Assembly (NCBI GenBank): GCA_963664405.1
Contig: OY761158.1
Span: forward strand, 554,038-618,037
DNA from: Thermoanaerobaculia bacterium
GTDB lineage: Bacteria; Acidobacteriota; Thermoanaerobaculia; Multivoradales; Multivoraceae
Length of the DNA stretch: 64,000 nt
Direction of reading: 5' to 3'
The notes under the pieces are model-generated. The model had not been told where the DNA came from. It did not search any database and saw nothing but the letters and a program-made list of their open reading frames with translations. Shown here one piece after another: positions 445-60,395 of the stretch; position 1 is the stretch's first letter, and every line of letters begins with the position of its first letter. The position numbers and the translations under genes were made by a program.

Positions 445-2273
445 TCACATTATCGCCGGAGCGTGTGAGGCCGAGGCGCCACAGGGCGGTCGCTGCATTG
501 GAGGTGGTGGTGAGCTGAGCCCAGGCTGTGGGGCAAGCTCTTCCTGCTCGGTTCGCGGTCTCGGCGAGAGGGTGTAGTTCCACTTTCCTAGGAAGTCGCT
601 CCTGGCCACCGCGAGCTGCAGCATTTCCTTGTCCGATACCCTGACTCCTTTCTGGTATTGGCGTTGATCACGGCACGGCTCGACGCGCAGTCCGGTGGAT
701 GTCGTCGTGTTGCGGACGAGGTTGACGAGGATCTCGAAACTCTCGAGAGGAACTCCGGCCCAGTTCTTGCTGATCTCGCTGAACATCCTGTGCTCGATGG
801 GATTCCATTTACTGGTGCCAGTTGGATAGTGGGCGACGGTGATGATGAGGCCGCACTTGTCTACGAGCTTCTCCTGGAGGTACTTCTTCCAGGCTCGAAG
901 CCGTGCGCCGTTGCTTGCGCCGCTGTCGGCAAGAATGAGGAGACGCTGAGACGCCGGATAGTGAGATCGACCGTATTTGAGCCACCAGGTCGCGATGCTG
1001 TTGACAGCGAACTCCGGCGTGTCCGACGACTGTCCGAGGACGAGAACGCCGAAGTTCCTCTGAAGATCGTAGATCCCATAGGGGGAGGCGATGGCGAGAG
1101 CTTCGGACCGGAAGTCGTGATCCTTGACCCGCTTGGCCTCGCGGCACCATGTCTGTCCCTGGTTCTTGAACCGACCGATCAGCTCCTTCTTCTTCGTATC
1201 GACGCTGATGATCGGGTCGCCAGCGCTTGTGAAATCCTCGCGCAGTCGCTTGATGGCCTTGAACTGTGCATCACGATCTGGGGAGTTCCCCGAAGACAGA
1301 CATTTCCTATTGCTCTTGAGGGAATAGTTCAGGTCTGCGAGCAATCGACGCACCACCGTAGCCGATACGATGATGTCAAGGCGTTCGGCAAGGCATTGGG
1401 CCACCTTTGCAGCGGTCTCGTGCGTCCATCTTTTTGATGACATGGGATCACCAGCTATATCGGCCTCGAGTATGGAATGGATTCCATCGACTATCTCGGG
1501 CGTTTTTTTTCCACTCGTTGGTTGCCACCGCCTGCTCTTCGAACTCTTCCGCGCTCCACGGAGCCGCCGAAGAGCTCGCGACGTCCTTTTGCGACTGTAT
1601 GAGGGTCCAGGTCCAGAAGATCGGCGATCTTCCGGTCGCCGCCATGCCCGAGCTTGGTCGCTTCCAGGCCAGCGAAGAGCCGCCGCTGGCGTTCGTCTAG
1701 CAGGCTGAAGAATAAAACGATGGCAGCCCTGAGCTCCTCGGGGAGCACTTCTGGAACGAGGCTGGCAGCTACATCCTGGAGAGCCTGCCGTTCGTTGCGC
1801 ATCAGCTTCTGCTGACGACGGCGCCCTGTTTCCGAGCACAAGTATACGAACCTCTTCCCAACTCTGGATCGTACGATTCTCTTGCGACGAACGAGGTGCA
1901 ACATCGCGTGCTTGACCTCGACCTGCAGCAGGAGCTCGAGTTCAGAAGCCGTATAGCCGGCAGCGGACCGGTCCACGGCAGCCACCGCAGTTTCGAGGAG
2001 GCTGCCATGCCGACTGAACCTCGCCGAACCGCACGACCACAAACCCAGATCGTCGAAATCGGGAATCTCGTTCAAGGTATAGAACCGCCCTCGATCCGAG
2101 TAGCTGGCCAAATAGCCCAATCGAGACAGCGAACGGTAGACCGTCATGGTGGCTCGGGTTCCCATGGCGTCCTTGAGCTCATCCATGGTGGCCATCTGTT
2201 CGCTCATCAAGAGCTCGCGCACTGTTGCATCACGATCTTCGGCTCGTACCATTTGGTATAGTTCCCCTTCCAA
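445..2273 (-). CDS. ISAzo13-family (Rhodopirellula-type DDE) transposase in two overlapping frames joined by a -1 shift at an A8 run
   Basis: ORFs 1491-2273 (...GGGNQRVEKKRPR*) and 445-1839 (...SGKKTPEIVDGIHSILEADIAGDPMSSKRWT...ISVDTKKKELIG...ADSGASNG...WNPIEHRMFS). The downstream frame is -1 relative to the upstream one. The junction is GTG GAA AAA AAA CGC. Confidence 0.85.
1503..1510 (-). promoter_or_regulatory. A8 homopolymer, candidate -1 frameshift / transcriptional slippage site (or inactivating indel)
   Basis: T8 on the plus strand at 1503-1510, lying in the overlap of the two transposase frames. Confidence 0.4.
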
Positions 2274-2356
2274 AAGAGGTGACAGGGAAAACTATACCAA
2301 ATGCGGGCAGGGCTATGCTAGCTCTAAACCTTGCAAACAAGGCGCGTACCGGAGGA

Positions 2357-2770
2357 TTATGCGGTGGCTGAAGAAGGGGGCAGTGGTATGGTCACCCCAG
2401 ATACTGGAAACTTATTTCCGCGCCGACCCTTAGTTGGCTGCGAGTCGGTTTTTTGTCCCCGCGAGGCGTGACTCAGGGTGTGGCGCAGATAGTCGAGGTA
2501 CCCCTCGGGGGGTGGCGTCGTGGGGAGTTCTCGGAGGATGGGGAGAAAGTAGGCGAGGGATCGGATGGGCTGGAGCTTTGGTAGGCGCGGATCTCGGCAT
2601 GCGCGTCGGGCGGAGCCGAGGAGGAGGGCGGCCTGGAGGACGGTGAGAGGCAGGTCTTGGTCGAAGAGCTGGTCGACGATGACGCGGTCGCCGTGGTGGA
2701 AGCGGTGCGGGGTGTCGGGAAGGAGTCGATAGAGGCGGAGGAGCTGGCGCCGATAGTGGCTTCGGGTCAT
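2357..2770 (-). CDS. IS21 accessory ORF downstream of istB (3' end altered by the ISAzo13 insertion)
   Basis: ATGA overlap with the istB stop. Identical to 42324-42680 up to ...SRGQKTDSQPTK, then runs into ISAzo13 sequence. Confidence 0.45.
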   Translation of the reverse strand: MTRSHYRRQLLRLYRLLPDTPHRFHHGDRVIVDQLFDQDLPLTVLQAALLLGSARRACRDPRLPKLQPIRSLAYFLPILRELPTTPPPEGYLDYLRHTLSHASRGQKTDSQPTKGRRGNKFPVSGVTIPLPPSSATA

Positions 2771-3576
2771 GAGCGTCGTCGTGCTGCGCTCCGCCTTTTG
2801 GCGCGGTCCTTGGCCTTTTTTTCAGCAGCCTCCTTGGCCTCCTTGCGGCGATAGGAGTTAGCCTCGATCTTGACGATCTCGGCGTGGTGGGTGAGTCGAT
2901 CGACGAGAGTGACGACGCAGGAGGCGTTGGGAAAGACCTCGGCCCATTCGGCGAAGGGCTTGTTGGTGGTGAGAAGAATGGGCTTGTTGCCGTATCTCCT
3001 GGAGACGACCTCGAAGAGGAGATCCGCGTGGCGGTGGTCGTAGGAGAGATAGCCGAGCTCATCGATTGCCAAAAGCGAGGGTCGGGTGTATTTGGAGAGC
3101 CTTCTCTGGAGCGCCGAGGGGGTTTCCTGGACGGCGAGATCGTTGAGCATGTCGGAGGCGGTGACGAAGCTGGCGGTGGCCCCTCGTTGCAGCGCCTGGT
3201 AGAGGAGGTTCTTGGCAATCATGGTCTTGCCGACACCGTTGGGTCCGAGGAGGATGACGTTGGTGATGTCGTCGAGGAATTGGAGGGTGAGCAGATCCTG
3301 GATCTGCTCGCGGTCGATGCGCTGGGGCCAGGAGAAGTCGAAGTCGGCGATGCTCTTGAAGAGCCCGACGCGGCTGGTGCGGATGCGCCGTTCGAGGCTG
3401 CGCCGTTTGCGCTCGGCCTCTTCTTTGCGCAGCAGCTGTTCGAGCCAGGGCTGTTCTCGGTAGGTGCCCCAGTCGTCGACGAGGGCGTAGAAGCCGAGGG
3501 ATCGGGCGAGCTCTCGTAGTGGTTCGTCAGGGATCGTTGGACTCTTCCTGGGTCGGGCCATCGTCGTTGCCTCCAA
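2767..3576 (-). CDS. istB: IS21-family helper ATPase IstB
   Basis: Walker A LLGPNGVGKTMIAKNL. DELGYL and LLTTNKPFAEW motifs. 269 aa. Confidence 0.95.
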   Translation of the reverse strand: MEATTMARPRKSPTIPDEPLRELARSLGFYALVDDWGTYREQPWLEQLLRKEEAERKRRSLERRIRTSRVGLFKSIADFDFSWPQRIDREQIQDLLTLQFLDDITNVILLGPNGVGKTMIAKNLLYQALQRGATASFVTASDMLNDLAVQETPSALQRRLSKYTRPSLLAIDELGYLSYDHRHADLLFEVVSRRYGNKPILLTTNKPFAEWAEVFPNASCVVTLVDRLTHHAEIVKIEANSYRRKEAKEAAEKKAKDRAKRRSAARRRS

Positions 3577-48312: not shown

Positions 48313-49765
48313 GGATTCAACTGGTCGTCGCAACATCTCGTGATGGAGGTGTTTCGATGGGAGTTGGCAAGTGTCAGGGTGCGATTCGAGCGATGCGTGG
48401 CCAGATGCGGTCACCTGGCCGGCCCTCGACAGCGCGGCGCGAGGACCGGATCCGGTTCTGGGAGACGATCGCTCGTGGGGCGTCCAGCGAGGACGCCGCA
48501 ACAGAGGCTGGGGTGTCGCCGGCTGTCGGGTCGAGATGGTTCAGGCAAGCTGGTGGAATGCGACCTATCTCGTTGGCTCCGGTGTCGGGGCGTTATCTGT
48601 CGTTCGCCGAGCGTGAAGAGATCGCCATCCTTCACGCTCAGCATGTTGGGGTACGTGAGATCGCTCGCCGCCTGGGTCGTTCACCGTCGACGATTTCGCG
48701 GGAGCTGCGCCGCAACGCGGCGACTCGCAGCCGTGCCGTAACTTATCGGGCCACGACTGCGCAGTGGCACGCGGAGCGGCGCGCCAGCCGTCCGAAGGTC
48801 TCCAAGCTTGCCGCGAACGATGCCTTGCGTGAGTACGTGCAGAACCGCCTCGCCGGCGTGATCGCAAGGCCTGACGGGGAGCTGGTGCCGGGTCCGGATG
48901 TGCGTTGGATCGGCCGTCGGCACGGCCGTCGCCAGGATCGGCGTTGGGCGAAATCCTGGAGTCCGGAGCAGATCTCGAACCGGCTTCGGATTGATTTCCC
49001 CCATAATGAGTCGATGCGGATCTCTCACGAGGCGATCTACCAAGCGCTCTACATCCAAGGTCGAGGAGCCCTCAAACGCGAGCTCGTCGCGTGCCTGCGA
49101 ACCGGGCGAGCGCTACGAGTGCCGCATGCGCGAACCCGGGGGAGAGGCAAGAAATTTGTAACTCCGGAGATCATGATCAGCGAACGCCCCGCCGAAGCCG
49201 CCGACAGGGCCGTGCCGGGTCACTGGGAAGGCGACCTGATCGTCGGGCTCGAGAGCTCAGCGATCGGGACCCTCGTCGAACGCACTACGCGGTTCACGAT
49301 GCTGCTGCACCTGCCCCGCATGGAAGGGCACGGGACCGAATCGAGGGTGAAGAACGGGCCGGCCCTCGCCGGGCACGGCGCCGAAGCCGTCCGTGACGCG
49401 ATCGCGGTGTCAATCACCACGCTGCCCGAGCAGCTCCGCCGGTCCTTGACCTGGGACCAGGGCGCCGAGATGGCTCAACACGCTCAACTCCGCGTCGATA
49501 CCGGCCTCGCGATCTACTTCTGCGACCCGCACAGCCCCTGGCAGCGGGGCACCAACGAGAACACCAACGGACTACTACGCCAGTACTTCCCGAAGGGCAC
49601 CGACCTTGTCAGATACTCCTGCGACGACCTCGCCGCGGTCGCGCTCGCACTCAACGGCCGACCCCGCAAGACCCTCGGCTGGAGAACCCCTGCCGAAGTC
49701 TTCGATGAGCTTGTACACTCTGCTCACCAAGGCAACGCTGCGACGACTCCTTGAACCCAAGCAGT
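48313..49765 (+). mobile_element. IS30-family element
   Basis: Imperfect IRs GGATTCAACTGGTCGTCGCAAC (48313-) and rc GGGTTCAAGGAGTCGTCGCAGC (-49758). Single transposase ORF. Confidence 0.8.
48357..49754 (+). CDS. IS30-family transposase
   Basis: HTH LSFAEREEIAILHAQHVGVREIARRLGRSPSTISRELRRN. DDE core HWEGDLI...LTWDQGAEMA...PWQRGTNENTNGLLRQYFPKGTDL. Confidence 0.92.
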   Translation: MGVGKCQGAIRAMRGQMRSPGRPSTARREDRIRFWETIARGASSEDAATEAGVSPAVGSRWFRQAGGMRPISLAPVSGRYLSFAEREEIAILHAQHVGVREIARRLGRSPSTISRELRRNAATRSRAVTYRATTAQWHAERRASRPKVSKLAANDALREYVQNRLAGVIARPDGELVPGPDVRWIGRRHGRRQDRRWAKSWSPEQISNRLRIDFPHNESMRISHEAIYQALYIQGRGALKRELVACLRTGRALRVPHARTRGRGKKFVTPEIMISERPAEAADRAVPGHWEGDLIVGLESSAIGTLVERTTRFTMLLHLPRMEGHGTESRVKNGPALAGHGAEAVRDAIAVSITTLPEQLRRSLTWDQGAEMAQHAQLRVDTGLAIYFCDPHSPWQRGTNENTNGLLRQYFPKGTDLVRYSCDDLAAVALALNGRPRKTLGWRTPAEVFDELVHSAHQGNAATTP

Positions 49766-50025
49766 ACGCCTCGAAGGCTTACCAGGATCGGCTGGCTGAG
49801 CTGCGGTTTCGCTGCAGCATGTCCGGCGTCGGAAATTGTTATGACAATGCGGTCTTGGAGAGCTTCTTCGACAGTCTCAAGACCGAGGTCTGGGACCGAC
49901 CCTTCGAGACTCGTCAGCGAGCTCACGACGAAGCGGTTTCTTACCTCGAAGTGTTCTACAACCTGAGACGCCAGCATTCGACGCTCGGATTCCTGAGCCC
50001 CGAGGCCTTCGAAGGGGCAGCGTGA
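49766..50025 (+). pseudogene. C-terminal fragment of an IS3-family OrfB (rve) transposase
   Basis: ...YQDRLAELRFRCSMSGVGNCYDNAVLESFFDSLKTEVW...LEVFYNLRRQHSTLGFLSPEAFE. The upstream part is missing (replaced by the IS30). A likely IS3 right end ...AACTGCCCCGATGGGGCTTAACTTGGTGTCCA lies near 50155. Confidence 0.75.
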
Positions 50026-50027
50026 AC

Positions 50028-51005
50028 TCACGCGCGACCGGCGGTCGGATCCGAAGGGAGGCTGCGCTCCCCGAACCTCGCACAGCCTCGTCCGAAGCTG
50101 ACTACCCGAACTGATGCAGAATAGGAACTGCCCCGATGGGGCTTAACTTGGTGTCCACGAAACCGTGACCGCTCAGAACCCCTGCCGAAGTCTTCGATGA
50201 GTTTGTACACTCTGCTCACCAAGGCAACGTTGCGACGACCCCTTGAACCCAAGCAGTCTGCCTGCGGCAGCTCTATGGCGAGCACCTCGTCGGCGTCCCG
50301 GATCTGCCAGATCGCCTCCTCCGGGACAGCGGGCTCGGGAGCGAGATTGTGGATCGGTGGGATCGAGCGCAGGTAGGCGAAGATCGAGATCAGATCCTCG
50401 TCGGTCAGGTTGCGAATCCACAGCCATGGCATCGGCGGCAGGACGCCCCGACCGGCCCCGCCGAGGTGTCGCCCCGTGCGAAAGATGTCGAGGAACATCT
50501 CCTCGGTCCAGGAGCCGGTGCCGGTCTCGATGTCGGGGGTGAGGTTGAGGGAGTACATGGTGCCGAAAGGCAGAGCGAAGCTCGTGAAGGTCGGACCGAT
50601 CAGGGCGATGTCCCCCGGACCGATGGTTCCCTGGGGATCGGGTGCGCCGCTCGGATGCCCCGACAGCATGCGGCTCATGTCGGGTCTCGGGGCGCCGATC
50701 ACCGGATCGAAGTTCCAGGGCGTGTGGCAGTCGTTGCAGCTGCCGAAACGCACCAGGTACTCACCACGCTCGATCTGAGCATCGCTGTAGGGGTTCTCGG
50801 GTGCCGTGCCTGGGACGACGGGGCCCAAGTCGAATGGTTCCGGTGGTGGCGATGCCTCCGCATCCGGTGTTGTTGCCGCGCCGGTGGCGGATTGCTCGGC
50901 TGGCCCTCGAGTGCAGGCTATCAACGCCAGGAACAGAATGGTCACGGCGAGTCCGAAAGCTCCCCCCAGGATGATCTGCACTCTCGTGTTCTTCATCTCC
51001 AACAA
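50028..51005 (-). CDS. c-type cytochrome (membrane-anchored); authentic sequence ends near 50263 and the 3' part is IS-derived
   Basis: N-terminal TM. Haem site CNDCH. After ...DEVLAIELPQ the frame reads through the IS30 end copy and the IS3 fragment. Confidence 0.75.
   Translation of the reverse strand: MLEMKNTRVQIILGGAFGLAVTILFLALIACTRGPAEQSATGAATTPDAEASPPPEPFDLGPVVPGTAPENPYSDAQIERGEYLVRFGSCNDCHTPWNFDPVIGAPRPDMSRMLSGHPSGAPDPQGTIGPGDIALIGPTFTSFALPFGTMYSLNLTPDIETGTGSWTEEMFLDIFRTGRHLGGAGRGVLPPMPWLWIRNLTDEDLISIFAYLRSIPPIHNLAPEPAVPEEAIWQIRDADEVLAIELPQADCLGSRGRRNVALVSRVYKLIEDFGRGSERSRFRGHQVKPHRGSSYSASVRVVSFGRGCARFGERSLPSDPTAGRA
50176..50262 (+). repeat. Second copy of the last ~87 bp of the IS30 element (solo right end)
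   Basis: GAACCCCTGCCGAAGTCTTCGATGAG(C/T)TTGTACACTCTGCTCACCAAGGCAACG(C/T)TGCGACGAC(T/C)CCTTGAACCCAAGCAGT matches 49679-49765. Confidence 0.8.
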
Positions 51006-51065
51006 TGTGTATTCAACTCCTCTGAGGCTCCTCGTGGCCGAGGCGAGTTCCTGCTTCCAGAACGA

Positions 51066-51222
51066 TGACTTGGCGACATCTTACCCGTCGCCCGTGGGAT
51101 CAGCGGCTCAGTGCTCGATCTGTGCGGTCGCACCTCACCGAATTTCACGACAGCCCCTCTGTTCAGAGGCTTATCCGCTTCCGGCTATACGTGTCGTCTC
51201 TCGCCACATAAAGCGTCACACT
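51066..51222 (+). repeat. REP-like triple-hairpin unit (solo copy)
   Basis: TTGGCGACATCTTACCCGTCGCCC...GGTCGCACCTCACCGAATTTCACGACA...GTGTCGTCTCTCGCCACATAAAGCGTCAC. Collinear with 57420-57575 and 60250-60395. Confidence 0.65.
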
Positions 51223-51549
51223 CCTGACGCGAGAAGGATCTCGTACGAGCGGCTTAGGGGGCGAGACAATCTTCTTTGCGTTCTGTGATCGCCTCGCCGT
51301 ACGACAGGAAAGCGCTCTCCTCTCGTCCTTCTCCTCAGTGCTCGGTCGGAGCACCAGGCTATACTGGCTTCAACGACCAATGACTTCGCGAGCGAGCGGT
51401 CTTGTCGTGCTCCTGGTCTCCGTTGGACCGGCGTTAGCTCAGGAGGGCCAACAGGTCCCAGATCCGGGCGCCGAGACCCGCGTCGTCCCCTATACAGACC
51501 ACTTTGGGGATACTCGAGTCGACTACATTATTGGCGGTCGGGCTGACCG

Positions 51550-51738
51550 GAATGGCATTAACATCTTCATATAACGTGCGTGGCCAACGGTTAAGCATTG
51601 CTTTCCCGCCGCAGCTGCCAACGTGTGACAGCTACGAAATCATTGGGGGTTTCGCCCGCCGAAGTCTTGCAGCATTGAAGTCACAGCATGACGTAACCGT
51701 TGTCGTGATTGGTTTTACGAAGATGTTAATGCCATTCA
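51550..51738. mobile_element. MITE-like element: 19-bp perfect terminal inverted repeats and 10-bp direct repeat
   Basis: TIR GAATGGCATTAACATCTTC (51550-68) and its reverse complement (51719-37). GGGCTGACCG at 51540-49 and 51739-48. AT-rich interior that can fold (CCAACGGTTA / TAACCGTTG). Confidence 0.7.
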
Positions 51739-51791
51739 GGGCTGACCGCAGCGAAGCCCCCGTCGTCTGCAATTCCATGACCGGTTGAACC

Positions 51792-53493
51792 ATGATGATT
51801 GACGAGTCGGCGTTCTCGGCGTATTTGGACTGCCCATATAAGGCCTTTCTTACATTGCAACAACTGACTGGCCCACAGCGCGAATTTCAGAAACTGCGGT
51901 CGAGGCTCCACGAGAAACTCCTGTCCCGTGTCGAATCAGAGATCCTTCGGGTAATAACGCCACGTACTCTGTCGAGAAAGTCTCGGACGACAGTTTCAGA
52001 TCTAAGACGAGGATCGCCCCTCATCCTCAACACCGTACTGTCCAGCTCTCAGTTTTCTTGTCGAGTTGCCGCGCTCCAACGCATAGATGGTCCATCCTCG
52101 TTAGGATCCTTCCTTTACACACCAATCCTTTTTCACGAGGATGCGGCGATTACGTCATCTCAGAAACTTCTTCTAGCATTTGCTGCGAATGTATTGGGCC
52201 GGGTTCAAGGATACGAACCGTCGGTTGGGCACATTGTTTCAGGAACGTCATGTACGCTGAAGAAGGTTTCCCTGAAGGCACTATCCCAACAGGTTGAAGA
52301 TATCATTAACGAACTCCAGCGGTACTCTTCCCAGATATCGGAACCTCGACAACTCCTAAACTCGCATTGTCATATTTGCCAGCACCATGACCGATGCGAG
52401 TCTGACGCACAGCAAATCGACCATCTAAGCAGGCTCAATCGAATAAGCGCGAGTGAAATCGACAAGTTGAATGCCAAGGGGATATTCACCGTTCATCAGT
52501 TGTCCCACACGTTTCGGCCACGGAAGCGTCCGAAGCGGCAAGGTGGACGCGACTACATCCCATACCACCATTCGCTGAGAGCCCTCGCGATTCGCGAGCA
52601 GAAGATCCACGTCTTTCAGCGTCCACCAAGCGTCTCTGCTACGACTCGCGCCTACATTGACATGGAAGGCGACCATGCCGCGCGGCACGTTTACCTAATC
52701 GGCCTCTTCCTTATCCGAAATGGGCGCCAACAGTACACGTCGTTCTGGGCCGAGAATCGAGACGACGAAGAACGCATCTTCCACGCACTGTTCGACAGAC
52801 TATCGCGGCTAGACGACTGCCATTTGTTCCACTATGGAAGCTATGACGGGCGTGCGCTAAAGCGCATGGTTCACTTGGCTCCAACGGAGAGTGTGAAGGA
52901 GCTAGTCACGAAGAACACTACCAATGTCCTCACAAACATCTATGCGCAGGTGTATTTCCCGACATACGGCAATCGACTGAAGGACGTTGCTGCGTTCCTC
53001 GGGTTTGAGTGGACCTACCCAGATTATTCTGGCATGGAAGCGATCTTGTGGCGACACCTGTGGGATCTCAGCCACTCCGCACAAATAAAGGCCCTGCTGA
53101 CCAAATACAACCGTGACGACTGCATGGCATTGAGGCTCGTGCATGAGGCGATCGAAGAAATCGCGACTGACTCACATGAACCGGTCGCTTGCGTGTCCTC
53201 GGAGTCAAATCCGCTGAAAGAGCCGATTGTATCCACAGAATCCCTCATGCACTCATCTGACTATAAAGATTGGGGACGAAGGGAGTTTGCGCGAGAAGAG
53301 TTTCGTCTTGTGGCCGACAGCGCCTACTTCGACTACCAACGAAACAGAGTCTACGTCCGCACGAACACAAAGGTGAGACGATATCAGCGACGGTCAAAGA
53401 AGCGGAGTGAGAAGGTCACGACTCGCCCGAACAAGATCATTGATTACACTGTCGCAGTGTGTCCGCGATGCAAGTCCGACCCTCTCTGCCAAG
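51792..53493 (+). pseudogene. N-terminal part of the nuclease-transposase fusion gene: Cas4/RecB-like PD-(D/E)xK nuclease (4-Cys) + RNase H-like (PF13482-type) exonuclease + first half of zf-IS66
   Basis: FSAYLDCPYKAFL ... CHICQHHDRCESDAQQIDHLSRLNRISASEIDKLNAKGIFTVHQL (TM0106-family pattern). YIDMEGD...YLIGLF...FWAENRDDEERIF...LFHYGSYDGRALKR. ...VAVCPRCKSDPLCQ is then interrupted by the IS3. Confidence 0.75.
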
Positions 53494-53549
53494 ATGCTTG
53501 AGACATCTCGCCACCGCTTAAATAGAGTAGGGCGGAGAGGTGAAACCTG

Positions 53550-54104
53550 ATGTCTGAAGAGAGGAAGATGCAAGAGATGAGATCAGCAGGCACGTCCATT
53601 GCGGTCCGGGGCGAGGAGGAGGTTTCCCAGCTTCCCCCGTGCGCCCAGATGGGGTCCGCGGAGGCGCCGACGGGCGAGCGTAGCGAGCACGGAGACGCAG
53701 CAGCGGGCGCCATCTGGGCGCGGCCGAGCCCTGTGTTGGATCCTGAGGTGGTCGCCAAGCCAACGCGGCGAACCTTCACGGCCGAGTACAAGCTGCGAAT
53801 CCTCGAGGAAGTCGAAGTGGCCACGCCTGGCGACATCGGCGCGATCCTGCGTCGCGAGGGATTGTACAGCTCACACCTGACGGCCTGGCGCAGGGCACGC
53901 AGGACCGGCGCTCTGCGAAGGCTGGGCCGAAGGCGAGGGCGCAAGGCGAAGTCCGGCAATCCGCTGGCCAAGAAGGTCGAGCAACTGGAAAAGGAGCTAT
54001 CCCGTACTCGCGAGGCGCTGCGCAAGGCAGAGCTGATCCTCGAAGTGCAGGGAAAAGTTGCCGGGCTGCTGGGCTTCAACCTCGAGGACGGGAGGAGCTC
54101 CTGA
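53550..54104 (+). CDS. IS3-family transposase OrfA
   Basis: HTH TFTAEYKLRILEEV and a leucine-zipper-like C-terminus. The slippery A-AAA-G at 54053-57 precedes the -1 frame that continues into OrfB. Confidence 0.88.
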   Translation: MSEERKMQEMRSAGTSIAVRGEEEVSQLPPCAQMGSAEAPTGERSEHGDAAAGAIWARPSPVLDPEVVAKPTRRTFTAEYKLRILEEVEVATPGDIGAILRREGLYSSHLTAWRRARRTGALRRLGRRRGRKAKSGNPLAKKVEQLEKELSRTREALRKAELILEVQGKVAGLLGFNLEDGRSS

Positions 54105-54118
54105 TCGCCGCCGCCGAA

Positions 54119-55108
54119 TTGGCGCTGCAGGTCGGCGTCAAGCCGTCCTGTATCGCTCTCGGCGTGGCACGGGCGACCCTGTACCGTCGTCGGAAGCCAA
54201 CTACCGGGCCGCAGCCCCGGCCAACACCCGCCCGGGCTCTGAGCGAGGACGAGTGCCAAGCCGTCCTGGACGTCCTGGACTCGCCTCGTTTCGTCGATCG
54301 TGCCCCCGCCGAGGTCGTCGCCACGCTCCTGGACGAGCAACGCTACCTCTGCTCGGAGAGGACCATGTACCGCATCCTCGCTGCGCGAGCTCCGGTGCGC
54401 GAGCGGCGCAACCAGCTTCGCCACCCCGATTACACCAAGCCGGAGCTGGTGGCGGTCGCCCCCAACCAAGTCTGGTCCTGGGATATCACCCGATTGCGGG
54501 GTCCTGAGAAGTGGAGCTACTACTACCTCTACGTCCTGCTCGACATCTTCAGCCGCTACGTCGTCGGCTGGATGCTCGCTCCCCGCGAGAACGCCAATCT
54601 CGCCGGTCGCCTCATCGAGGAGACGTGCTGCAAGCACGATGTCAAACCCGAGGTCCTCACTCTGCACAGCGATCGGGGCTCCCCGATGACCGCCAAGTGC
54701 ACGGCTCAGCTGCTCGCCGATCTGGGACTCACTCAGTCGCTCAGCCGGCCCCAGGTCTGTGACGACAATCCCTTTTCCGAGGCCCAGTTCAAGACCCTCA
54801 AGTACCACCCGAGCTTCCCCTCCCGATTCGCCAGCCAGGAGGCCGCCCAGGCTTTCTGCAGGACCTTCTTCCCTTGGTACAACACCGAGCACCGCCACGG
54901 TGGGATCGCCCACCTGACGCCGCACGGCGTCCACCACGGTCGAGCGGAGCAGGACCTTGCCGCACGGCAAGTCACGCTCGATGCCGCCTTCCAAACTCAC
55001 CCAGAACGCTTCCTCCGAGGGCGACCCATCGTCTCGCCTTTACCTGGAACCGTATACATCAACCGGCCTGAGGATCCGCAGGTCTCGACCGAAGAGGACC
55101 TTCACTAA
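54119..55108 (+). CDS. IS3-family transposase OrfB (rve integrase core)
   Basis: PNQVWSWDITRL...YLYVLLDIFSRYVVGW...LHSDRGSPMT...NPFSEAQFKTLKY...YNTEHRHGGI. The -1 frame is open back to 54053. Confidence 0.9.
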   Translation: MALQVGVKPSCIALGVARATLYRRRKPTTGPQPRPTPARALSEDECQAVLDVLDSPRFVDRAPAEVVATLLDEQRYLCSERTMYRILAARAPVRERRNQLRHPDYTKPELVAVAPNQVWSWDITRLRGPEKWSYYYLYVLLDIFSRYVVGWMLAPRENANLAGRLIEETCCKHDVKPEVLTLHSDRGSPMTAKCTAQLLADLGLTQSLSRPQVCDDNPFSEAQFKTLKYHPSFPSRFASQEAAQAFCRTFFPWYNTEHRHGGIAHLTPHGVHHGRAEQDLAARQVTLDAAFQTHPERFLRGRPIVSPLPGTVYINRPEDPQVSTEEDLH

Positions 55109-55132
55109 TTTATGACTCGAGGTGTCTCAAAG

Positions 55133-56205
55133 TTCTTGACAGGTTCCGCGATGATCTTGTGCTCGACTATCAAGAGGGCAAGGAAAAGTACGCCTATGAT
55201 CTTCGGTTCTCGCGGGGTGGGATTCGCAGATGGGTAACCAAAAGGCGAATGCCTCGCCATCAGTGCAAGTCGTGCAATCATGCATTTATACCGGTCGAAC
55301 CGAAGTCTCAACAGCGCCTCGGCCACAACCTGCTCGCTTGGGCCATGCACCAGCATGTCATCAACCGAACTTCCCTCGCGAACCTGACGATGACCGCACG
55401 TGAGTGTTTTGGCTTGGAACTCGGAGAATGGGACTTCCAGAGGCTGAAGTCAATGGCCGGGAAGTACTATCAAGAAACGTATGACAAGTTACTGAGTGAG
55501 CTGGTGGCGGGGCCTCTGCTTCATATCGACGAGACGAGTGTTTGGTTAAGAGGCCATGTCACCGGCTACGTGTGGGTATTCACAAGCATGGAGTCGGTCG
55601 TGTTCATGTACCGGTCTACGCGGGAAGGCGATTTTCTACACGACCTCTTGCGGACGTTCACGGGCGTAATGGTGACGGACTTCTATACGGCGTATGACTC
55701 GATACAGTGCCCACAGCAAAAATGCCTAGTGCACCTGATGTGGGATATCAATCGGGCGCTGCTTAAGCATCCGTTTGACGAGGAACTGAACGAACTTGGC
55801 AGGACGTTTGGGACTCTCATGCGAGATGTCGTCGGCACAATCGATCGATTTGGTTTGAAGGACCGGTATCTGAGAAAGCATCGAGAGCAAGCGTCGACAT
55901 GGCTTCGCGGACTGCGAGGGAGTCCGTGGAAATCGGTCATCGCGGAGAAGTTTCGTAAGAGGATTGTCAAGTACGACGATCGTCTATTCACTTTCCTCGA
56001 CTACGATGGCGTACCTTGGAATAACAACAACGCTGAGAATGCAATTAAGCCGTTTGCGAAGTACAGAAGACTGGTTCGGGGACGGATAACCGAGCCTGGA
56101 CTTCGCGACTATTTGGTGCTGCTGAGTATTGCCCACACATGCAAATACCGTAGCGTCTCACTGCTTGACTTTCTCTTGTCCGGGGCTCAGGAGATTCCTG
56201 ATTGA
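55133..56205 (+). pseudogene. C-terminal part of the fusion gene: second half of zf-IS66 + IS66-family DDE transposase domain
   Basis: ...HQCKSCNHAF. HIDETSVWLRG..GYVWVF, VMVTDFYTAYD, CLVHLMWDINRA, PWNNNNAENAIKPF. In frame with 51792-53493 once the IS3 is removed. Confidence 0.8.
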
Positions 56206-57419
56206 GCGGGCTCCGCCGGGGATCCTCCACTCTTAACTGTAATCGCGACTCTGGCACCCTCGCTGCCGGATATGCGCTCGGCAACCAGGGAGTCGAGAGG
56301 GCGCCGGTAGAGGCTGGTCTCGGCTCCCTCGCGACGGACGAAGACCACCATCCGACCGTCCGGAGAGAGCGCGAAGGGCTGATCCGGAGCTGCCTCGAGG
56401 TCGAGAGCCGTGACCGTCCAGGTGTCGCCCGAGGCAGCGTCGCTCGCCGCATCGCCTCCATCTCGGAACAGGACGAAGCCCAAGACAAGACCGACCACCA
56501 CGGCGAGGGCGAGGACGAGGACCGCCAACACCGGTCGCCTGGTAGGCACCGTCTCGGTCTCGGGCTTATCGGTAAGGGCCTCGAGTTCGAGGGCCAGGTC
56601 GTGGGCGTGCCAGCGCCGCTCGGGAGCCTTCTCGAGGCAGCGACTCACCAGCCAGTCGAGGCGATCGGGAGCGACTGGCCGCCGCTCCCGTAACGGCTCC
56701 GGCTCGCTGGTCATGATCGCGGCCATGAGCCTCACCTGGGATTCCCCGGCAAAGGGTCGCGCTCCGGTCACCATCTCGTAGAGGACAGCACCCAGCCCCC
56801 AGATGTCCGAGCGCTCGTCGGCCTCCTTGCCTTCGAGCTGCTCAGGGGCCATGTACTGGAGCGTCCCCAGGATCGAGCCTTCGCCGGTCAGGGGCTGCGT
56901 GACGGTCGGGGTCTGTGTATCCCCCACGGCCAGCCCGGAGTGAACCACGCCCTTGGCGAGGCCGAAGTCCAGAACCTTGGCTCCGTCTCGGGTCAGCATG
57001 ACATTGCCAGGTTTGAGGTCCCGGTGGATCACTCCGTGACGATGGGCGGCATCGATGGCCTCGGCGATCTCCGAACCGATCGTCGCCACCTCCTCTAGGG
57101 GCAGGGCGCCGCGTCGAAGCCGGTCCTCGAGAGTTTCGCCCTCCAGGTACTCCATGACCAGGTAATCGACACCGTCTTCGCTGCCAATGTCGTGGAGGGT
57201 ACAGATGTTGGGATGGCTCAGCTGCGAGAGGCTCTTCGCTTCACGCTCCAGCCGCTGGCGGTAGAGCGTGTCCTGCCCGAGCTCCTCAGGCAGTACCTTG
57301 ATCGCGACATCCCGCTCCAGGCGTGTGTCACGACCCAGGTACACCTCTCCCATGCCGCCCTTTCCGCGCAGCTCGACGATCTCGTAGGGACCGAGGCGGG
57401 AGCCTGGTTCTAGAGCCAT
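56187..57419 (-). CDS. Ser/Thr protein kinase, truncated paralog of 57583-60249
   Basis: HRDLKPGNVML, DFGLAK, APE. Collinear with the long paralog to ...ERISGSEGAR (about 56250), then unrelated sequence from the AT-rich insert. Confidence 0.85.
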   Translation of the reverse strand: MALEPGSRLGPYEIVELRGKGGMGEVYLGRDTRLERDVAIKVLPEELGQDTLYRQRLEREAKSLSQLSHPNICTLHDIGSEDGVDYLVMEYLEGETLEDRLRRGALPLEEVATIGSEIAEAIDAAHRHGVIHRDLKPGNVMLTRDGAKVLDFGLAKGVVHSGLAVGDTQTPTVTQPLTGEGSILGTLQYMAPEQLEGKEADERSDIWGLGAVLYEMVTGARPFAGESQVRLMAAIMTSEPEPLRERRPVAPDRLDWLVSRCLEKAPERRWHAHDLALELEALTDKPETETVPTRRPVLAVLVLALAVVVGLVLGFVLFRDGGDAASDAASGDTWTVTALDLEAAPDQPFALSPDGRMVVFVRREGAETSLYRRPLDSLVAERISGSEGARVAITVKSGGSPAEPAQSGIS

Positions 57420-57575
57420 GACTTGGCGACATCTTACCCGTCGCCCGGTGGAATCAGCGGCTCGGAGCTCGATCTGTGCTGTCGCACCTCACCCGGAAGT
57501 GCGACACCGCCCCGATTTCGGGGCCTATCGACTTTCAGCTATGCCTGTCGCACTCCGCCAGCAAAGGCGACAAGG
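57420..57575 (+). repeat. REP-like triple-hairpin unit
   Basis: GGCGAC(57425-30)/GTCGCC(57440-45). GTCGCAC(57481-87)/GTGCGAC(57499-505). TGTCGC(57546-51)/GCGACA(57567-72). Confidence 0.65.
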
Positions 57576-57582
57576 CCCGCGC

Positions 57583-60249
57583 TCACGAGCCCCCATCGGA
57601 GAACATCTCGAGCACCTTGGCCCGCCAGTTCTGGATGAAGACTCGACGCTCCTCCTCGTCCTCTGCCGCCTGGATCATGAGGAAGCGACCGTCGGGGTGG
57701 ATATCGTAGTTCTGGAAGCGGGTGGCCACGCGCAGGTACTCATCCACGAAGAGTGGCTCGGGACGGCGGGTGACGAGACGCTCGCCGGTGATCTCGACCG
57801 GGAGCGTCATCATGTGGGTCGGGCTGCGATAGAGGATCTCCCGGCCTTCGGGGGAGAAGCTCGCCTCCTCGCCGCCGTCGAAGGTGAGCTGGCGCGGCTC
57901 GCCGGGACCGGGGAAGGGCCGAATCCAGACGTTCGCTTGTCCCTCAACGCGCACCGAGTAGGCGATCCAACGTCCGGCGGGGTGGAAGCGGGCGGCGTGG
58001 ACCTGCTTCCCCTCGAGGAGGGTTTCGGACTCCCCGCTCTGCCGGTCGAAGACCCAGAGCCCGTTGACATCGAGGAGGCCCGTGTAGAGCAGGTAGCGCC
58101 CGTCCGGGGAGAAGTCGAGCGGGAGTTGGTTGTGCTCCGACGGTACGAGACGCTCCGCAGAGGACCTGCGATCGGCGGGCTGGATGTAGATCTGCCGGCG
58201 TCCCTCGAAGCGATCCGACGCGAAGACGATCTCCCGTCCGTCGGGGGGCACCCACATCGCGCCAGTGTTGCGATTCCCCTCCTGGGTCGGGCGGGTCCAG
58301 GAGCCGGTCCCGAGGTCGAGCATCCACTGCTCATTATTCCCCCTGGCGTTGCGGGCTGCCACCGAGATCCGGCGCCAGTCCAGGGAATGTCGCGGCCTCG
58401 AGAAAGGCTTGCGCTCTGGCGCCACCTCCTCGATGTCCAGGCCGTCCCGACTCACCCAGACCAGGCGGTCCCCATTCCGACTCCCGAGGACGTAGAGCAG
58501 GTCGCCCGAGTCGGCGAGCGCGAAGCGGCCGCCGGCACCGACGCTGCCGGGGGACGGGGCCACCCCGGTCTCGACCTGACGCGCTGGGCCGAGGAGGTCG
58601 GCGGTCTCGGGATCGATCGGCACCGCCCACAGTCCGCCTTCGCGATAGAAGACCAAAACCCCCGGATTGAGATAGCGCGGCTGCGTCCCAGGGAGGAGAA
58701 CCCGTTCCTTGCCGGTCTCGAGGTCCACCGCCAGCACATCGCGCCCGAAGCCGTCCTGACGCTCGGATCTCGATTGGGTCAGGGCGATCCGTTCACCAGG
58801 CAGAAGCGCTGCCCCGTCGCCATGTCGTCCCACCTGCTCGGGGACACCCCCACCCGCCGGAATCCGCCATAGCTCGCGAGACGTGGCGCTGCCTATCTCA
58901 GGCGTGTAGTAGAGGAAGCCGTCGCGCCCCCAGACAGCGGCTGCGCGGATCCGGATCCCTTCCACCAGAGCGCTGGCGCCGCCTCCACCCTCCACGCGAA
59001 GCGTCTTCAGACTGCCCCCGGCGTCCACGAAGGCAAGCTGTTTGCCGTCGGGCGAGAAGATCGGGCTGCGGGCACCGTCGCTGCCGGAGATGCGCTCGAC
59101 GACCAGGGAGCCGAGAGAGCGCCGGTAGAGGCTGGTCTCGGCTCCCTCGCGACGACGGAAAACCACCATCCGACCGTCCGGAGAGAGCACTGCGGGCTCA
59201 TCCGGAGCTGCCTCGAGGTCGAGAGCCGTGACCGTCCAGGTGTCGTCGGAGGCAGCGTCGCTCGCCGCATCGCCTCCATCTCGGAACAGGACGAAGCCCA
59301 AGACAAGACCGACCACCAGGGCAAGGAGGCCGAAGGCACCGGCGAGGACCGCCGATACCTGACGCTTGGCAGGCGCCGTCTCGGTCTCGGGCCTATCGGT
59401 AAGGGCCTCGAGCTCCAGGGCCAGGTCGTGGGCGGAATGCCAGCGACGCTCGGGGGCCTTCTCGAGACAGCGGCTCACCAGCCAGTCGAGGCGGTCGGGA
59501 GCCACTGGCCGCCGCTCCCGTAACGGCTCCGGCTCGCTGGTCATGATGGCCGCCATGAGCCTCACCTGGGATTCCCCGGCAAAGGGTCGCGCTCCGGTCA
59601 CCATCTCGTAGAGGACCGCACCCAGACCCCAGATGTCCGAGCGCTCGTCGGCCTCTTTGCCTTCGAGCTGCTCCGGGGCCATGTATTGAAGGGTCCCCAG
59701 GATCGAGCCTTCGCCGGTCAGGGGCTGCGTGACGGTCGGGGTCTGTGTATCCCCCACGGCCAGTCCGGCGTGAACCACGCCCTTGGCGAGGCCGAAGTCC
59801 AGGACCTTGGCTCCGTCTCGGGTCAGCATGACGTTGCCGGGCTTGAGATCGCGGTGGACTACTCCGTGACGATGGGCGGCATCGATGGCCTCGGCGATCT
59901 GCGATCCGATCGCCGCCACCTCATCCAGCGGCAGGGCGCCGCGTCGAAGCCGACCCTCGAGGGTCTCGCCCTCCAGGTACTCCATGACCAAAAAGTCGAC
60001 ACCGTCTTCGCTGCCAATGTCGTGGAGGGTACAGATGTGGGGATGGCTCAGCTGCGAGAGGCTCTTCGCTTCACGCTCGAGCCGCTGGCGGTAGAGCGTG
60101 TCCTGCCCGAGCTCCTCAGGCAGCACCTTGATCGCTACATCCCGCTCCAGGCGTGTGTCGCGGCCCAGGTACACCTCTCCCATGCCGCCCTTGCCGCGCA
60201 GCTCGACGATCTCGTACGGACCGAGGCGGGAGCCTGGTTCTAGAGCCAT
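57583..60249 (-). CDS. Ser/Thr protein kinase with TM segment and C-terminal TolB/PD40-type beta-propeller
   Basis: Kinase core as above. TM AVLAGAFGLLALVVGLVLGFVLF. Repeated SPDG / FSPDGR motifs. ATG 60249 matches the paralog start. The longest ORF starts at 60324. Confidence 0.9.
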   Translation of the reverse strand: MALEPGSRLGPYEIVELRGKGGMGEVYLGRDTRLERDVAIKVLPEELGQDTLYRQRLEREAKSLSQLSHPHICTLHDIGSEDGVDFLVMEYLEGETLEGRLRRGALPLDEVAAIGSQIAEAIDAAHRHGVVHRDLKPGNVMLTRDGAKVLDFGLAKGVVHAGLAVGDTQTPTVTQPLTGEGSILGTLQYMAPEQLEGKEADERSDIWGLGAVLYEMVTGARPFAGESQVRLMAAIMTSEPEPLRERRPVAPDRLDWLVSRCLEKAPERRWHSAHDLALELEALTDRPETETAPAKRQVSAVLAGAFGLLALVVGLVLGFVLFRDGGDAASDAASDDTWTVTALDLEAAPDEPAVLSPDGRMVVFRRREGAETSLYRRSLGSLVVERISGSDGARSPIFSPDGKQLAFVDAGGSLKTLRVEGGGGASALVEGIRIRAAAVWGRDGFLYYTPEIGSATSRELWRIPAGGGVPEQVGRHGDGAALLPGERIALTQSRSERQDGFGRDVLAVDLETGKERVLLPGTQPRYLNPGVLVFYREGGLWAVPIDPETADLLGPARQVETGVAPSPGSVGAGGRFALADSGDLLYVLGSRNGDRLVWVSRDGLDIEEVAPERKPFSRPRHSLDWRRISVAARNARGNNEQWMLDLGTGSWTRPTQEGNRNTGAMWVPPDGREIVFASDRFEGRRQIYIQPADRRSSAERLVPSEHNQLPLDFSPDGRYLLYTGLLDVNGLWVFDRQSGESETLLEGKQVHAARFHPAGRWIAYSVRVEGQANVWIRPFPGPGEPRQLTFDGGEEASFSPEGREILYRSPTHMMTLPVEITGERLVTRRPEPLFVDEYLRVATRFQNYDIHPDGRFLMIQAAEDEEERRVFIQNWRAKVLEMFSDGGS

Positions 60250-60395
60250 GAGTTGGCGACATCTTACAGTCGCCCGGTGGATCAGCGGCTCAGAGCTCGA
60301 TCTGTGCTGTCGCAGAGCACCCAAAAGTGCGACAGCGGGAGGCTTATTCGCTTCGAGCTATTCTTGTCGTGGTCCGCCCCCAAATGCGACAGTCT
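60250..60395 (+). repeat. REP-like triple-hairpin unit
   Basis: TTGGCGACATCTTACAGTCGCCC...CTGTCGCAGAGCACCCAAAAGTGCGACAG...CTTGTCGTGGTCCGCCCCCAAATGCGACAG. Confidence 0.65.

Follow-up and report, generated by a model that had tools for sequence, protein, structure and literature searches.

A 64,000-nt stretch of DNA from a Thermoanaerobaculia bacterium (GCA_963664405.1, contig OY761158.1, positions 554,038–618,037, forward strand), referred to here as the window, contains one gene that is interrupted by an IS3-family insertion sequence (IS) and that encodes a TM0106/COG2251-type module fused to the zinc ribbon and DDE transposase core of the IS66 family. The split gene and its domain assignments both stand, and the family to which the gene belongs is a new variant within the IS66 world. 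We put forward, tentatively and with some reservation, the proposal that the fused protein serves IS66-type mobile DNA as an auxiliary enzyme for end processing and strand transfer. The copy in the window is most likely, judging from its sequence and surroundings, a solitary and immobile remnant that was later killed by the IS3 insertion.

One gene split by an IS3-family element

Two open reading frames (ORFs) lie on the + strand at 51792–53501 (569 aa) and 55159–56205 (348 aa), with the IS3-family element between them. A first-pass annotation had listed both ORFs and had read them as a single gene split by this element, whose orfA carries HTH_Tnp_1 and whose orfB carries rve/rve_3. This reading is borne out by the uninterrupted homologs, each of which is one ORF. 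The motifs on which it drew were also all found, namely an N-terminal Cys with CHICQHHDRC, a helix-hairpin-helix and DMEGD/HYGSYD, the CPRC and CKSC pairs, and DETS/TDFY/NNNAENAIK.

The exact extent of the insertion was determined by comparison with orthologs. At the DNA level, window positions 51781–53479 correspond to 329–2035 of locus L001, which holds the closest intact ortholog (84–87% identical), and window positions 55149–56207 correspond to 2033–3091 of the same locus, the two matches overlapping by the three nucleotides CGA. Joining 51792–53479 to 55152–56205 gives a protein of 913 aa with no internal stop, and its junction is identical to that of the orthologs, in which CPRCKS is followed directly by DDLVLDYQEGK (all 13 intact homologs compared). 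The inserted block is therefore 53480–55148. The first-pass annotation had instead excised 53494–55132, with a duplication of AAG. The resulting 924-codon frame is indeed open, but the join is wrong, as it holds 11 extra residues (DPLCQVLDRFR); it stays in frame because 33 extra bases of the insert are retained, and the TG...CA repeats of the IS3 element fall within sequence that had been given to the gene. The parts of the interrupted gene and of the insert are as follows.

51792..53479, + strand: fusion gene, 5' part (codons 1–562 and the first two bases of codon 563), defined by the ORF, TIGR03491, PF13482 and DNA homology to L001 up to 53479; it holds the Cas4-like iron–sulphur (Fe-S) domain, the helix-hairpin-helix, the DEDDy exonuclease, a linker with YFDYQ and the first zinc-ribbon CxxC
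53460..53471, + strand: first CxxC (CPRC) of the four-cysteine zinc ribbon, with C557 and C560 invariant
53477–53479 and 55149–55151: direct repeat CGA, flanking the inserted block
53480..55148, + strand: inserted block of 1,669 bp, an IS3-family element with junctions set by the ortholog comparison and a G+C content (GC) of 0.645
53487–53510 and 55118–55141: TG...CA inverted repeats of the IS3 element, 24–25 nt (53486–53510 / 55118–55142), 80% matched
53550–54104, + strand: IS3 orfA (HTH_Tnp_1)
54119–55108, + strand: IS3 orfB (rve/rve_3)
55152..56205, + strand: fusion gene, 3' part, from the second CxxC and the IS66-type DDE core through the stop codon (PF03050, NF033517)
55264–55275, + strand: second CxxC (CKSC) of the zinc ribbon
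55528–55530 (D), 55678–55680 (D), 55723–55734 (CxxH), 56038–56040 (E) and 56047–56049 (K), + strand: DDE-core residues, placed by motif alignment to canonical TnpC

It could be argued that the two ORFs are unrelated neighbours, a nuclease gene and a truncated IS66 transposase gene, and that their in-frame join is a coincidence. The join made in the first-pass annotation was in fact partly coincidental, with its 33 bases from the insert. However, there are thousands of uninterrupted single-ORF homologs, the zinc ribbon is divided between the two ORFs, the ratio of nonsynonymous to synonymous substitution (dN/dS) against L001 is 0.16–0.22 in every part of the gene, and the ortholog-guided join reproduces the ortholog junction exactly. 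The uninterrupted homologs and the exact junction refute the unrelated-neighbours reading, which we regard as next to impossible.

The interrupting element shows the features of the IS3 family (an HTH orfA, an rve orfB in the −1 frame and TG...CA repeats) and was inserted 8 bases 3' of CPRC. Seven bases at each edge (CCCTCTC, 53480–53486; GGTTCCG, 55142–55148) separate the tips of its repeats from CGA; they belong neither to the target gene, by comparison with the orthologs, nor to the TG...CA repeats. The ends of the element resemble the adjacent target sequence. No second copy was found: the ends are unique in the window, and the orfB product is without a database record. Plasmid IS3 relatives such as ISAzs23 match orfB only, at ~68%.

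Domains, active sites and spread of the fused family

The fused protein matches TIGR03491 (TM0106 family RecB-like putative nuclease) over residues 5–451 with 210.8 bits (cutoff 97.45), and PF13482 over residues 287–453 with 80.7 bits. Its C-terminal part matches PF03050 (DDE_Tnp_IS66) with 96.9 bits (cutoff 23.1), the D-D-E triad being intact, and NF033517 (IS66 family transposase) over residues 536–916 with 162.5 bits, under the 180-bit equivalog cutoff. At E ≤ 0.01 the protein gave no match to PF01930. The closest intact ortholog was modelled with AlphaFold (98 homologs) at a mean pLDDT of 89.6, with disorder in linkers only, and a Foldseek search independently returned the DDE transposase ISCth4 (IS256-family), Cas4 of Cas4-Cas1-Cas2 complexes, Dna2, and the DnaQ domains 8h2f and 8h18. 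The modules proposed in the first-pass annotation, a Cas4/RecB-like (TM0106) domain and a PF13482 exonuclease followed by the IS66 zinc ribbon and DDE core, are thus backed by profiles, by AlphaFold and by Foldseek.

The annotation had further counted two nuclease modules, which is an overstatement: the exonuclease motifs are intact, while the catalytic residues of the Cas4-like domain are lost in all members. Active sites were compared with the solved Cas4 structure 8d3l and with a canonical TM0106-helicase protein of Pseudomonas luteola. The two domains of the window gene, and the motifs of the Cas4-like site in canonical and fused proteins, compare as follows.

51831..52397, + strand: Cas4-like Fe-S domain with a predicted dead site; Cys14 at 51831–51833 and CxxCx5C at 52368–52397
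52068–52070, 52122–52133 and 52167–52181, + strand: changes of the Cas4-like site in the window, respectively Ala for the motif-II Asp, P-I-L-F for (E)xDxK, and LLLAF for QxxxY
52659..53120, + strand: DEDDy 3'-5' exonuclease domain; DxE at 52659–52667, HYGSYD at 52830–52847 and YNRDD at 53106–53120
Motif II Asp: ADFL in canonical TM0106, (D/A/N)AL in the fused family
(E)xDxK: YEVIDTK in canonical TM0106, YxP(I/V)LF in the fused family
QxxxY: VQLAFY in canonical TM0106, LLLAF in the fused family

The PD-(D/E)xK residues are replaced in every aligned member, while the Fe-S cysteines C14, C193, C196 and C202 are invariant. The Cas4-like domain is accordingly predicted not to be an active nuclease. 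Across 98 sequences the exonuclease residues D290, E292, N440 and D443 are invariant, and Y439 is nearly so (motifs DxE, HYGSY(D/E) and YNxxD). The zinc-ribbon cysteines and the DDE motifs are conserved and align position by position with canonical TnpC. Between relatives dN/dS was 0.13–0.29, with each module constrained, and 129 of 146 ORFs were at least 850 aa long; the substitution ratios indicate that all modules are under purifying selection. The P. luteola protein (L173:3764–7174, plasmid NZ_CP044084.1; 1,136 aa) has an apparently active Cas4-like nuclease, PF13482 and an SF1 helicase (AAA_11/AAA_12), and it is the canonical counterpart of the module that is fused here to a transposase.

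The first-pass annotation had presented an IS66 transposase with N-terminal nuclease modules as unfamiliar. The family is in fact huge, and its members are annotated. More than 120 full-length uninterrupted fusions were present among the matches listed in a first protein search, and a second gave 2,720 protein clusters at E ≤ 1e-100, which is a lower bound. At least 533 loci were found in species-representative genomes, which belong to Planctomycetota, Acidobacteriota, Proteobacteria, Nitrospirota, Verrucomicrobiota, Cyanobacteria, Bacteroidota, candidate phyla and archaea; a metagenome scan added 280. Cyanobacterial plasmids hold two full copies, whereas phage records and 2.9 million viral contigs yielded none. 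Complete genomes with family members include those of Ca. Solibacter usitatus Ellin6076 and Singulisphaera sp. PoT, and plasmids of Acaryochloris marina MBIC10699 and Calothrix PCC 7716 carry the family too. Because C-terminal peptide patterns served to retrieve the loci, the sampling is biased and bars any conclusion on an excess of 5'-truncated copies. Two close relatives of the window gene are truncated within the ORF, from about residues 544 and 580, and keep the right end (L092:100–1262 and L125:129–1176).

Database names for family members are 'predicted RecB family nuclease', 'TM0106 family RecB-like putative nuclease' and 'IS66 family transposase'. No analysis of a TM0106/IS66-type fusion was found in the full-text literature, a scope that leaves aside subscription-only papers and ISfinder. 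A survey of the RNase H-like superfamily lists PF13482/COG2251 with DUF83 and tandem AAA domains only (PMC3985635), and a paper on Cas4 phylogenomics has neither 'transposase' nor 'IS66' in its text. A 2012 survey of acidobacterial mobile elements tabulates four 'transposase IS66' genes of Ca. Solibacter usitatus, enters pfam03050 and COG2251 together in a single row, and does not comment on the pairing. The fusion architecture is therefore visible in annotation tables, yet as far as we found it is undescribed in print.

Solitary copies and copies within IS66-family transposons

Most copies of the family are solitary. Among ~130 loci there was no conserved neighbour within 4 kb, and among 60 loci there was no association with tRNA-linked integration. 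Inverted repeats within 600 nt of the ORF had a median score of 20 (control 20), and those at mapped boundaries matched at 11.9 of 24 positions (control 11.9 of 24). Target duplications were absent from the exact junctions of solitary units, and no empty target site was present among the fetched loci. Rfam detected no structured RNA in the non-coding ends of 10 loci or in the window, and a guide RNA of the IS110 type in the ends was rejected on this result. A PADLOC search for defence systems returned weak Cas4 hits only.

Two solitary units were each found in three flanks. One, of 3,360 bp, is 99.5–100% identical between L174:786–4142, L176:279–3635 and L177:75–3431, and makes up the whole of contig L178; it has sharp ends (TGACCC...GGCAC) and encodes nothing else. 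This unit lies between the arms of a host palindromic (REP-like) repeat at an AT-rich spot, with GAAGCGGAC on the left and GCTATGTCCGC on the right. The other, of 3,473 bp, has a synonymous divergence (dS) of 0.02. Both have sharp ends without a duplication or convincing repeats. Insertion in host palindromes holds for the P0114 group and for L139; as a general rule it was rejected, only 3 of 23 units giving p < 0.05. A circular excised form was likewise rejected. The sole contig with overlapping ends, L043 (3,549 bp), carries a family copy in a tRNA gene array; its 44-nt end overlap lies within the 3' end of a repeated tRNA gene, and the circle is an assembly effect.

A minority of copies, from two subclades, lie inside IS66-family transposons. 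In L035, L116, L115 and L093 the fused gene is contained in an element of ~5.5 kb that is bounded by GTACGCGYCCGGCGRATCACGT inverted repeats (GTACGCG...ACGT) and carries a convergent, canonical tnpC-tnpB-tnpA set. The fused gene, oppositely oriented, has tnpC on one side and a terminal repeat on the other. The embedded elements are listed here.

L035:5679–11238: full element, 8-bp duplication matched at 7 of 8 positions
L115:6–5412: full element
L093:904–6637: full element, its backbone close to the L115 one but its fused gene of a different lineage
L116:336–5785: full element
L064:5126–8635: 3.5-kb deletion derivative without tnpC and the tnpB 3' end, with a perfect 8-bp duplication

The embedded units are collinear over 5.2–5.3 kb at 69–76% identity, and the four genes have therefore co-diverged. 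Genes for tnpA/tnpB stand beside the fused gene in only 4–5 of the ~130 loci, always with canonical tnpC except in L064. L064 was considered as proof that the fused protein replaces TnpC, and this was rejected on the truncation of its tnpB, which marks it as a deletion derivative.

A second kind of carrier is a three-gene IS of 5,342 bp (P0128), which is 99.9–100% identical in 14 metagenome contigs with about five different flanks (L188:499–5840; also L187 and L189–L196). Its terminal repeat of 13 bp (GTATTTGTTTACC) is perfect, as are the 8-bp duplications in L187 and L190, whose flanks belong together. The genes form a tight operon in the order tnpC' (an IS66 transposase), DruA/DUF4338 and the fused gene; the start of the fused gene overlaps the DruA stop, and its own stop lies inside the right repeat. 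TnpC' has 486 aa, scores 222.5 bits with NF033517, and is 23–24% identical to both the fused DDE core and canonical TnpC. This IS is apparently active. The fused gene thus occurs in two IS66 lineages whose transposases are ~24% identical.

The 8-bp duplications are confined to the composite elements L064, L035, L187 and L190, and a separate standard IS66 transposase is present wherever terminal repeats and 8-bp duplications surround family members. The first-pass annotation implied that the fused protein serves an IS66 element as its transposase, a reading made doubtful by the standard IS66 transposase that is co-encoded in all these cases.

Several seemingly solitary copies (L055, L061, L062 and L181–186) are 5'-truncated remnants of the three-gene IS, in which the fused gene and the right repeat survive, with breakpoints at element positions 2412, 2390, 2221 and 2357. 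The idea that L055, L061 and L062 share one left end was wrong; they are independent truncations of the larger IS. Far upstream in the flank of L062, an acidobacterial locus, and unrelated to the element, are two matches to the Acido-Lenti-1 small RNA (RF01687; 27–72 and 174–219, 48.6 and 44.3 bits).

The window copy was compared with these states. As the first-pass annotation had noted, its DNA is AT-richer than the surroundings: GC is ~0.52 in the fusion gene, against ~0.63–0.66 in the flanks and 0.645 in the IS3 element, which is host-like. G+C at third codon positions (GC3) is 0.61 in the fusion gene, 0.81 in the host kinase and 0.80 in IS3 orfB. The fusion gene, foreign in both GC and GC3, arrived by horizontal transfer. 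At its right edge are two further features.

56206..56210, + strand: start of the conserved post-stop tail; relatives share ...CCTGATTGAG(C/G)AA(C/T) and then diverge
56253..57419, − strand: truncated Ser/Thr kinase paralog adjoining the foreign gene; kinase domain only, the PD40 beta-propeller part being gone (Pfam)

The kinase fragment is 90.5% identical to 59071–60391 of the full-length paralog, with homology stopping at 56253, which agrees with the truncation placed at ~56250 by the first-pass annotation. In the tail, the last three positions of the window copy differ from its relatives (GGG, 56208–56210). Homology to relatives of the window subfamily in at least four other contexts (L001, L083, L092, L125) stops ~9–10 nt past the stop codon, and this geometry is that of the right repeat in the three-gene IS, with the stop codon inside the repeat and 8 bases from its end. 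The tail may be a remnant of a right end. A matching left repeat for the window copy was not found in the available sequence, and a new search around the gene found no IS66-type terminal repeats, in agreement with the first-pass annotation. There are no companion genes around the window copy, no tnpA/tnpB in the window, and no definable ends of this copy at which an 8-bp target duplication could be read. Both halves of the gene are still intact and dN/dS against L001 is 0.18; the IS3 hit is therefore recent.

The window copy lies in an IS-rich patch, with an HTH_38/rve transposase gene at 48357–49754 (465 aa) and a C-terminal fragment of an IS3-type orfB at 49606–50025. Among this mobile-element debris upstream is an 89-nt direct repeat (49683–49771 and 50175–50263, 94%). 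Just 5' of the fusion gene, the stretch 51200–51791 has a GC of 0.57 and no recognisable gene; it contains a 37-nt inverted repeat (51539–51575 / 51712–51748, 84% complementary, 136 nt apart). At 51038–51196 the 5' end and upstream region of the kinase paralogs occur for a third time, here without a kinase gene (80% identical to 57391–57550 and 76% to 60221–60370). The region around 51038–51196 is a patchwork of rearrangements.

Proposed role, alternatives and known systems

The family protein, of ~910–950 aa, joins a TM0106/COG2251-type DNA-end module to a complete zinc ribbon and DDE core of the IS66 type. In the mechanism that we propose, a DNA end would be held by the Fe-S domain and helix-hairpin-helix, the exonuclease would trim the 3' strand, and the zinc ribbon and DDE core would recognise the DNA and cut or join it. 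Family members would travel inside IS66-family transposons that have their own standard transposase, and where the remainder of the transposon was lost the fused gene would be left as a solitary gene. From these motifs and settings we infer an activity on DNA ends and a role in transposition over one in host defence, and we likewise infer that the window copy descended from a transposon bounded by inverted repeats. The parent element of the window subfamily would carry a left end, GTTGCTCAATCAGG, 2–3 kb upstream of P0001 relatives.

Several observations weigh against this proposal. Copies embedded in IS66 elements made up only ~6 of the ~130 distinct loci in the first scans, and embedding could be a secondary capture rather than the normal home of the family. 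A parent element with terminal repeats was not found for the window subfamily; neutral flanks of its members would not align anyway, because dS between them is at least 0.48. Passive carriage does not explain the near-identical solitary units in three unrelated flanks. Several single-copy loci are stable across many samples, diverged intact paralogs form tandem arrays, head to tail with 5–45 nt from stop to start (three copies in L074:6001–14249, two in L110:1114–6422), and one subclade has the translationally coupled DruA/GNAT-like partner. A host-useful or defence-type gene would explain the stable loci, the arrays and this partner no less well.

Such a gene would be exapted cargo: derived from a transposase, it would now serve the host or carrier in a role apart from transposition, for instance as an anti-phage or anti-plasmid DNA-end nuclease, with a DruA/GNAT-like partner in one subclade, while IS66 transposons act as mere carriers and hosts retain the gene after they decay. 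We consider this possible, though on the unlikely side. It would account for the constant presence of a standard transposase where repeats and duplications exist, and for the single-copy loci that persist and the operon-like form of the arrays. In the remnants of the three-gene IS the ORFs are intact and the four left breakpoints all lie no more than 282 nt 5' of the fused gene, which would have a probability of ~1.6e-4 if breakpoints were uniform over 2.5 kb; this clustering suggests that the fused gene itself was retained. The patchy phyletic spread, the plasmid copies, the toxin-antitoxin or integrase neighbours at some loci and the inactivated nuclease domain, typical of exaptation, point the same way, as does DUF4338/DruA, a domain read as GNAT-like and defence-associated (PMC10853773). 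However, PADLOC gives only the weak Cas4 hits, no defence partner is conserved across the ~130 loci, and the DruA link is limited to one subclade. It would also be a striking coincidence if a passenger that itself bears an IS66 DDE core had been taken up by two unrelated IS66 lineages.

A second alternative, that the fused protein is the sole transposase of an autonomous single-gene IS, we regard as unlikely. Here the element would move by a non-canonical route that involves neither terminal inverted repeats nor a target duplication. TnpA/TnpB and the repeats would be replaced by the exonuclease and end-binding module, and the element would tend to land near related copies or in IS66 elements. 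The 3,360-bp and 3,473-bp units, each in three flanks and the former with sharp ends, speak for it; the intact DDE triad is under selection, diverged copies follow one another head to tail, different fused-gene lineages occupy the same position of similar IS66 backbones (L093, L115), and four copies are listed in Ca. Solibacter usitatus. Against it, inverted repeats near ORFs or mapped boundaries are no better than chance, the exact junctions lack duplications, copy number is usually one and the loci are stable. The apparent case of identical ends in L055, L061 and L062 proved to be independent truncations of a larger IS, and the host palindromic repeats that flank the 3,360-bp unit could have spread it by recombination. 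Unlikely, too, is a self-contained 'trimmer-integrase', in which the Cas4-derived end-binding domain and DEDDy exonuclease would set and trim the ends of the protein's own gene-sized unit and the DDE core would integrate it. By that reading terminal repeats and duplications would be lacking, and sites near related copies, in IS66 transposons and in host palindromic repeats would be preferred. If true, DDE transposition would gain a new mode, one that parallels CRISPR spacer processing in the world of transposons.

The window copy itself, a dead remnant, is of local interest only. Thousands of bacterial and archaeal genes that go under the names 'TM0106 family RecB-like putative nuclease' or 'IS66 family transposase' would gain a function once the role of the family is worked out. 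Little is understood of IS66 transposition, and a conserved fused partner offers a handle on its DNA-end processing; alternatively, a new transposase-derived defence or addiction module would be gained. The 5,342-bp three-gene element, with its perfect repeats, 8-bp duplications and identical copies, is a ready experimental system.

The C-terminal ~380 residues of the fused protein match the whole core of IS66 TnpC, including the four-cysteine zinc ribbon and the motifs HxD(D/E)T, (A/T)D..Y, CxxH and NNx(S/A)E..(R/K). In contrast to TnpC, the fused family has ~530 extra N-terminal residues, the TM0106 module, in place of the leucine-zipper region, its NF033517 score is below the cutoff (162.5 versus 180 bits), and it forms its own clade far from canonical TnpC. 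Some fused genes lie in elements with GTA-initiated repeats and 8-bp duplications, as in IS66 elements of the tnpA-tnpB-tnpC or single-gene ISBst12 type, whereas most copies, the window's included, are without repeats, duplication and tnpA/tnpB. The N-terminal module shares with TM0106/COG2251 proteins (TIGR03491) the domain order, the four cysteines, the helix-hairpin-helix and the DEDDy motifs, and the P. luteola protein aligns throughout it; it differs in having lost the PD-(D/E)xK residues and in having an IS66 DDE core, not an SF1 helicase, as its C-terminal partner.

The fused family has the fold and Fe-S cysteines of Cas4, with Foldseek or sequence matches to 7mi5, 8d3l and 4r5q. By analogy with CRISPR adaptation, where Cas4-Cas1 and DnaQ-Cas2 fusions occur, end recognition, 3'-5' trimming and an integrase would be brought together in one machine. 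Unlike that system, the integrase here is a DDE enzyme and not Cas1, the Cas4-like domain is predicted to be dead, and no CRISPR/cas neighbourhood was found within 4 kb in ~130 loci. In the heteromeric transposase of Tn7, the restriction-enzyme-like nuclease TnsA works together with the DDE transposase TnsB. In the fused family, too, a PD-(D/E)xK-fold domain and a DDE transposase belong to a single machine; TnsA, however, is active and a separate protein, and second-strand cleavage by the Cas4-like domain is unlikely because its PD-(D/E)xK site appears dead. Transporter IS are insertion sequences that carry passenger genes. The fused gene, accompanied in one architecture by the DruA-like gene, resembles such a passenger in its position between the transposase gene(s) of the element and a terminal repeat, but differs in being a diverged paralog of its carrier's own transposase family, found in two IS66 lineages with ~24% identical transposases.

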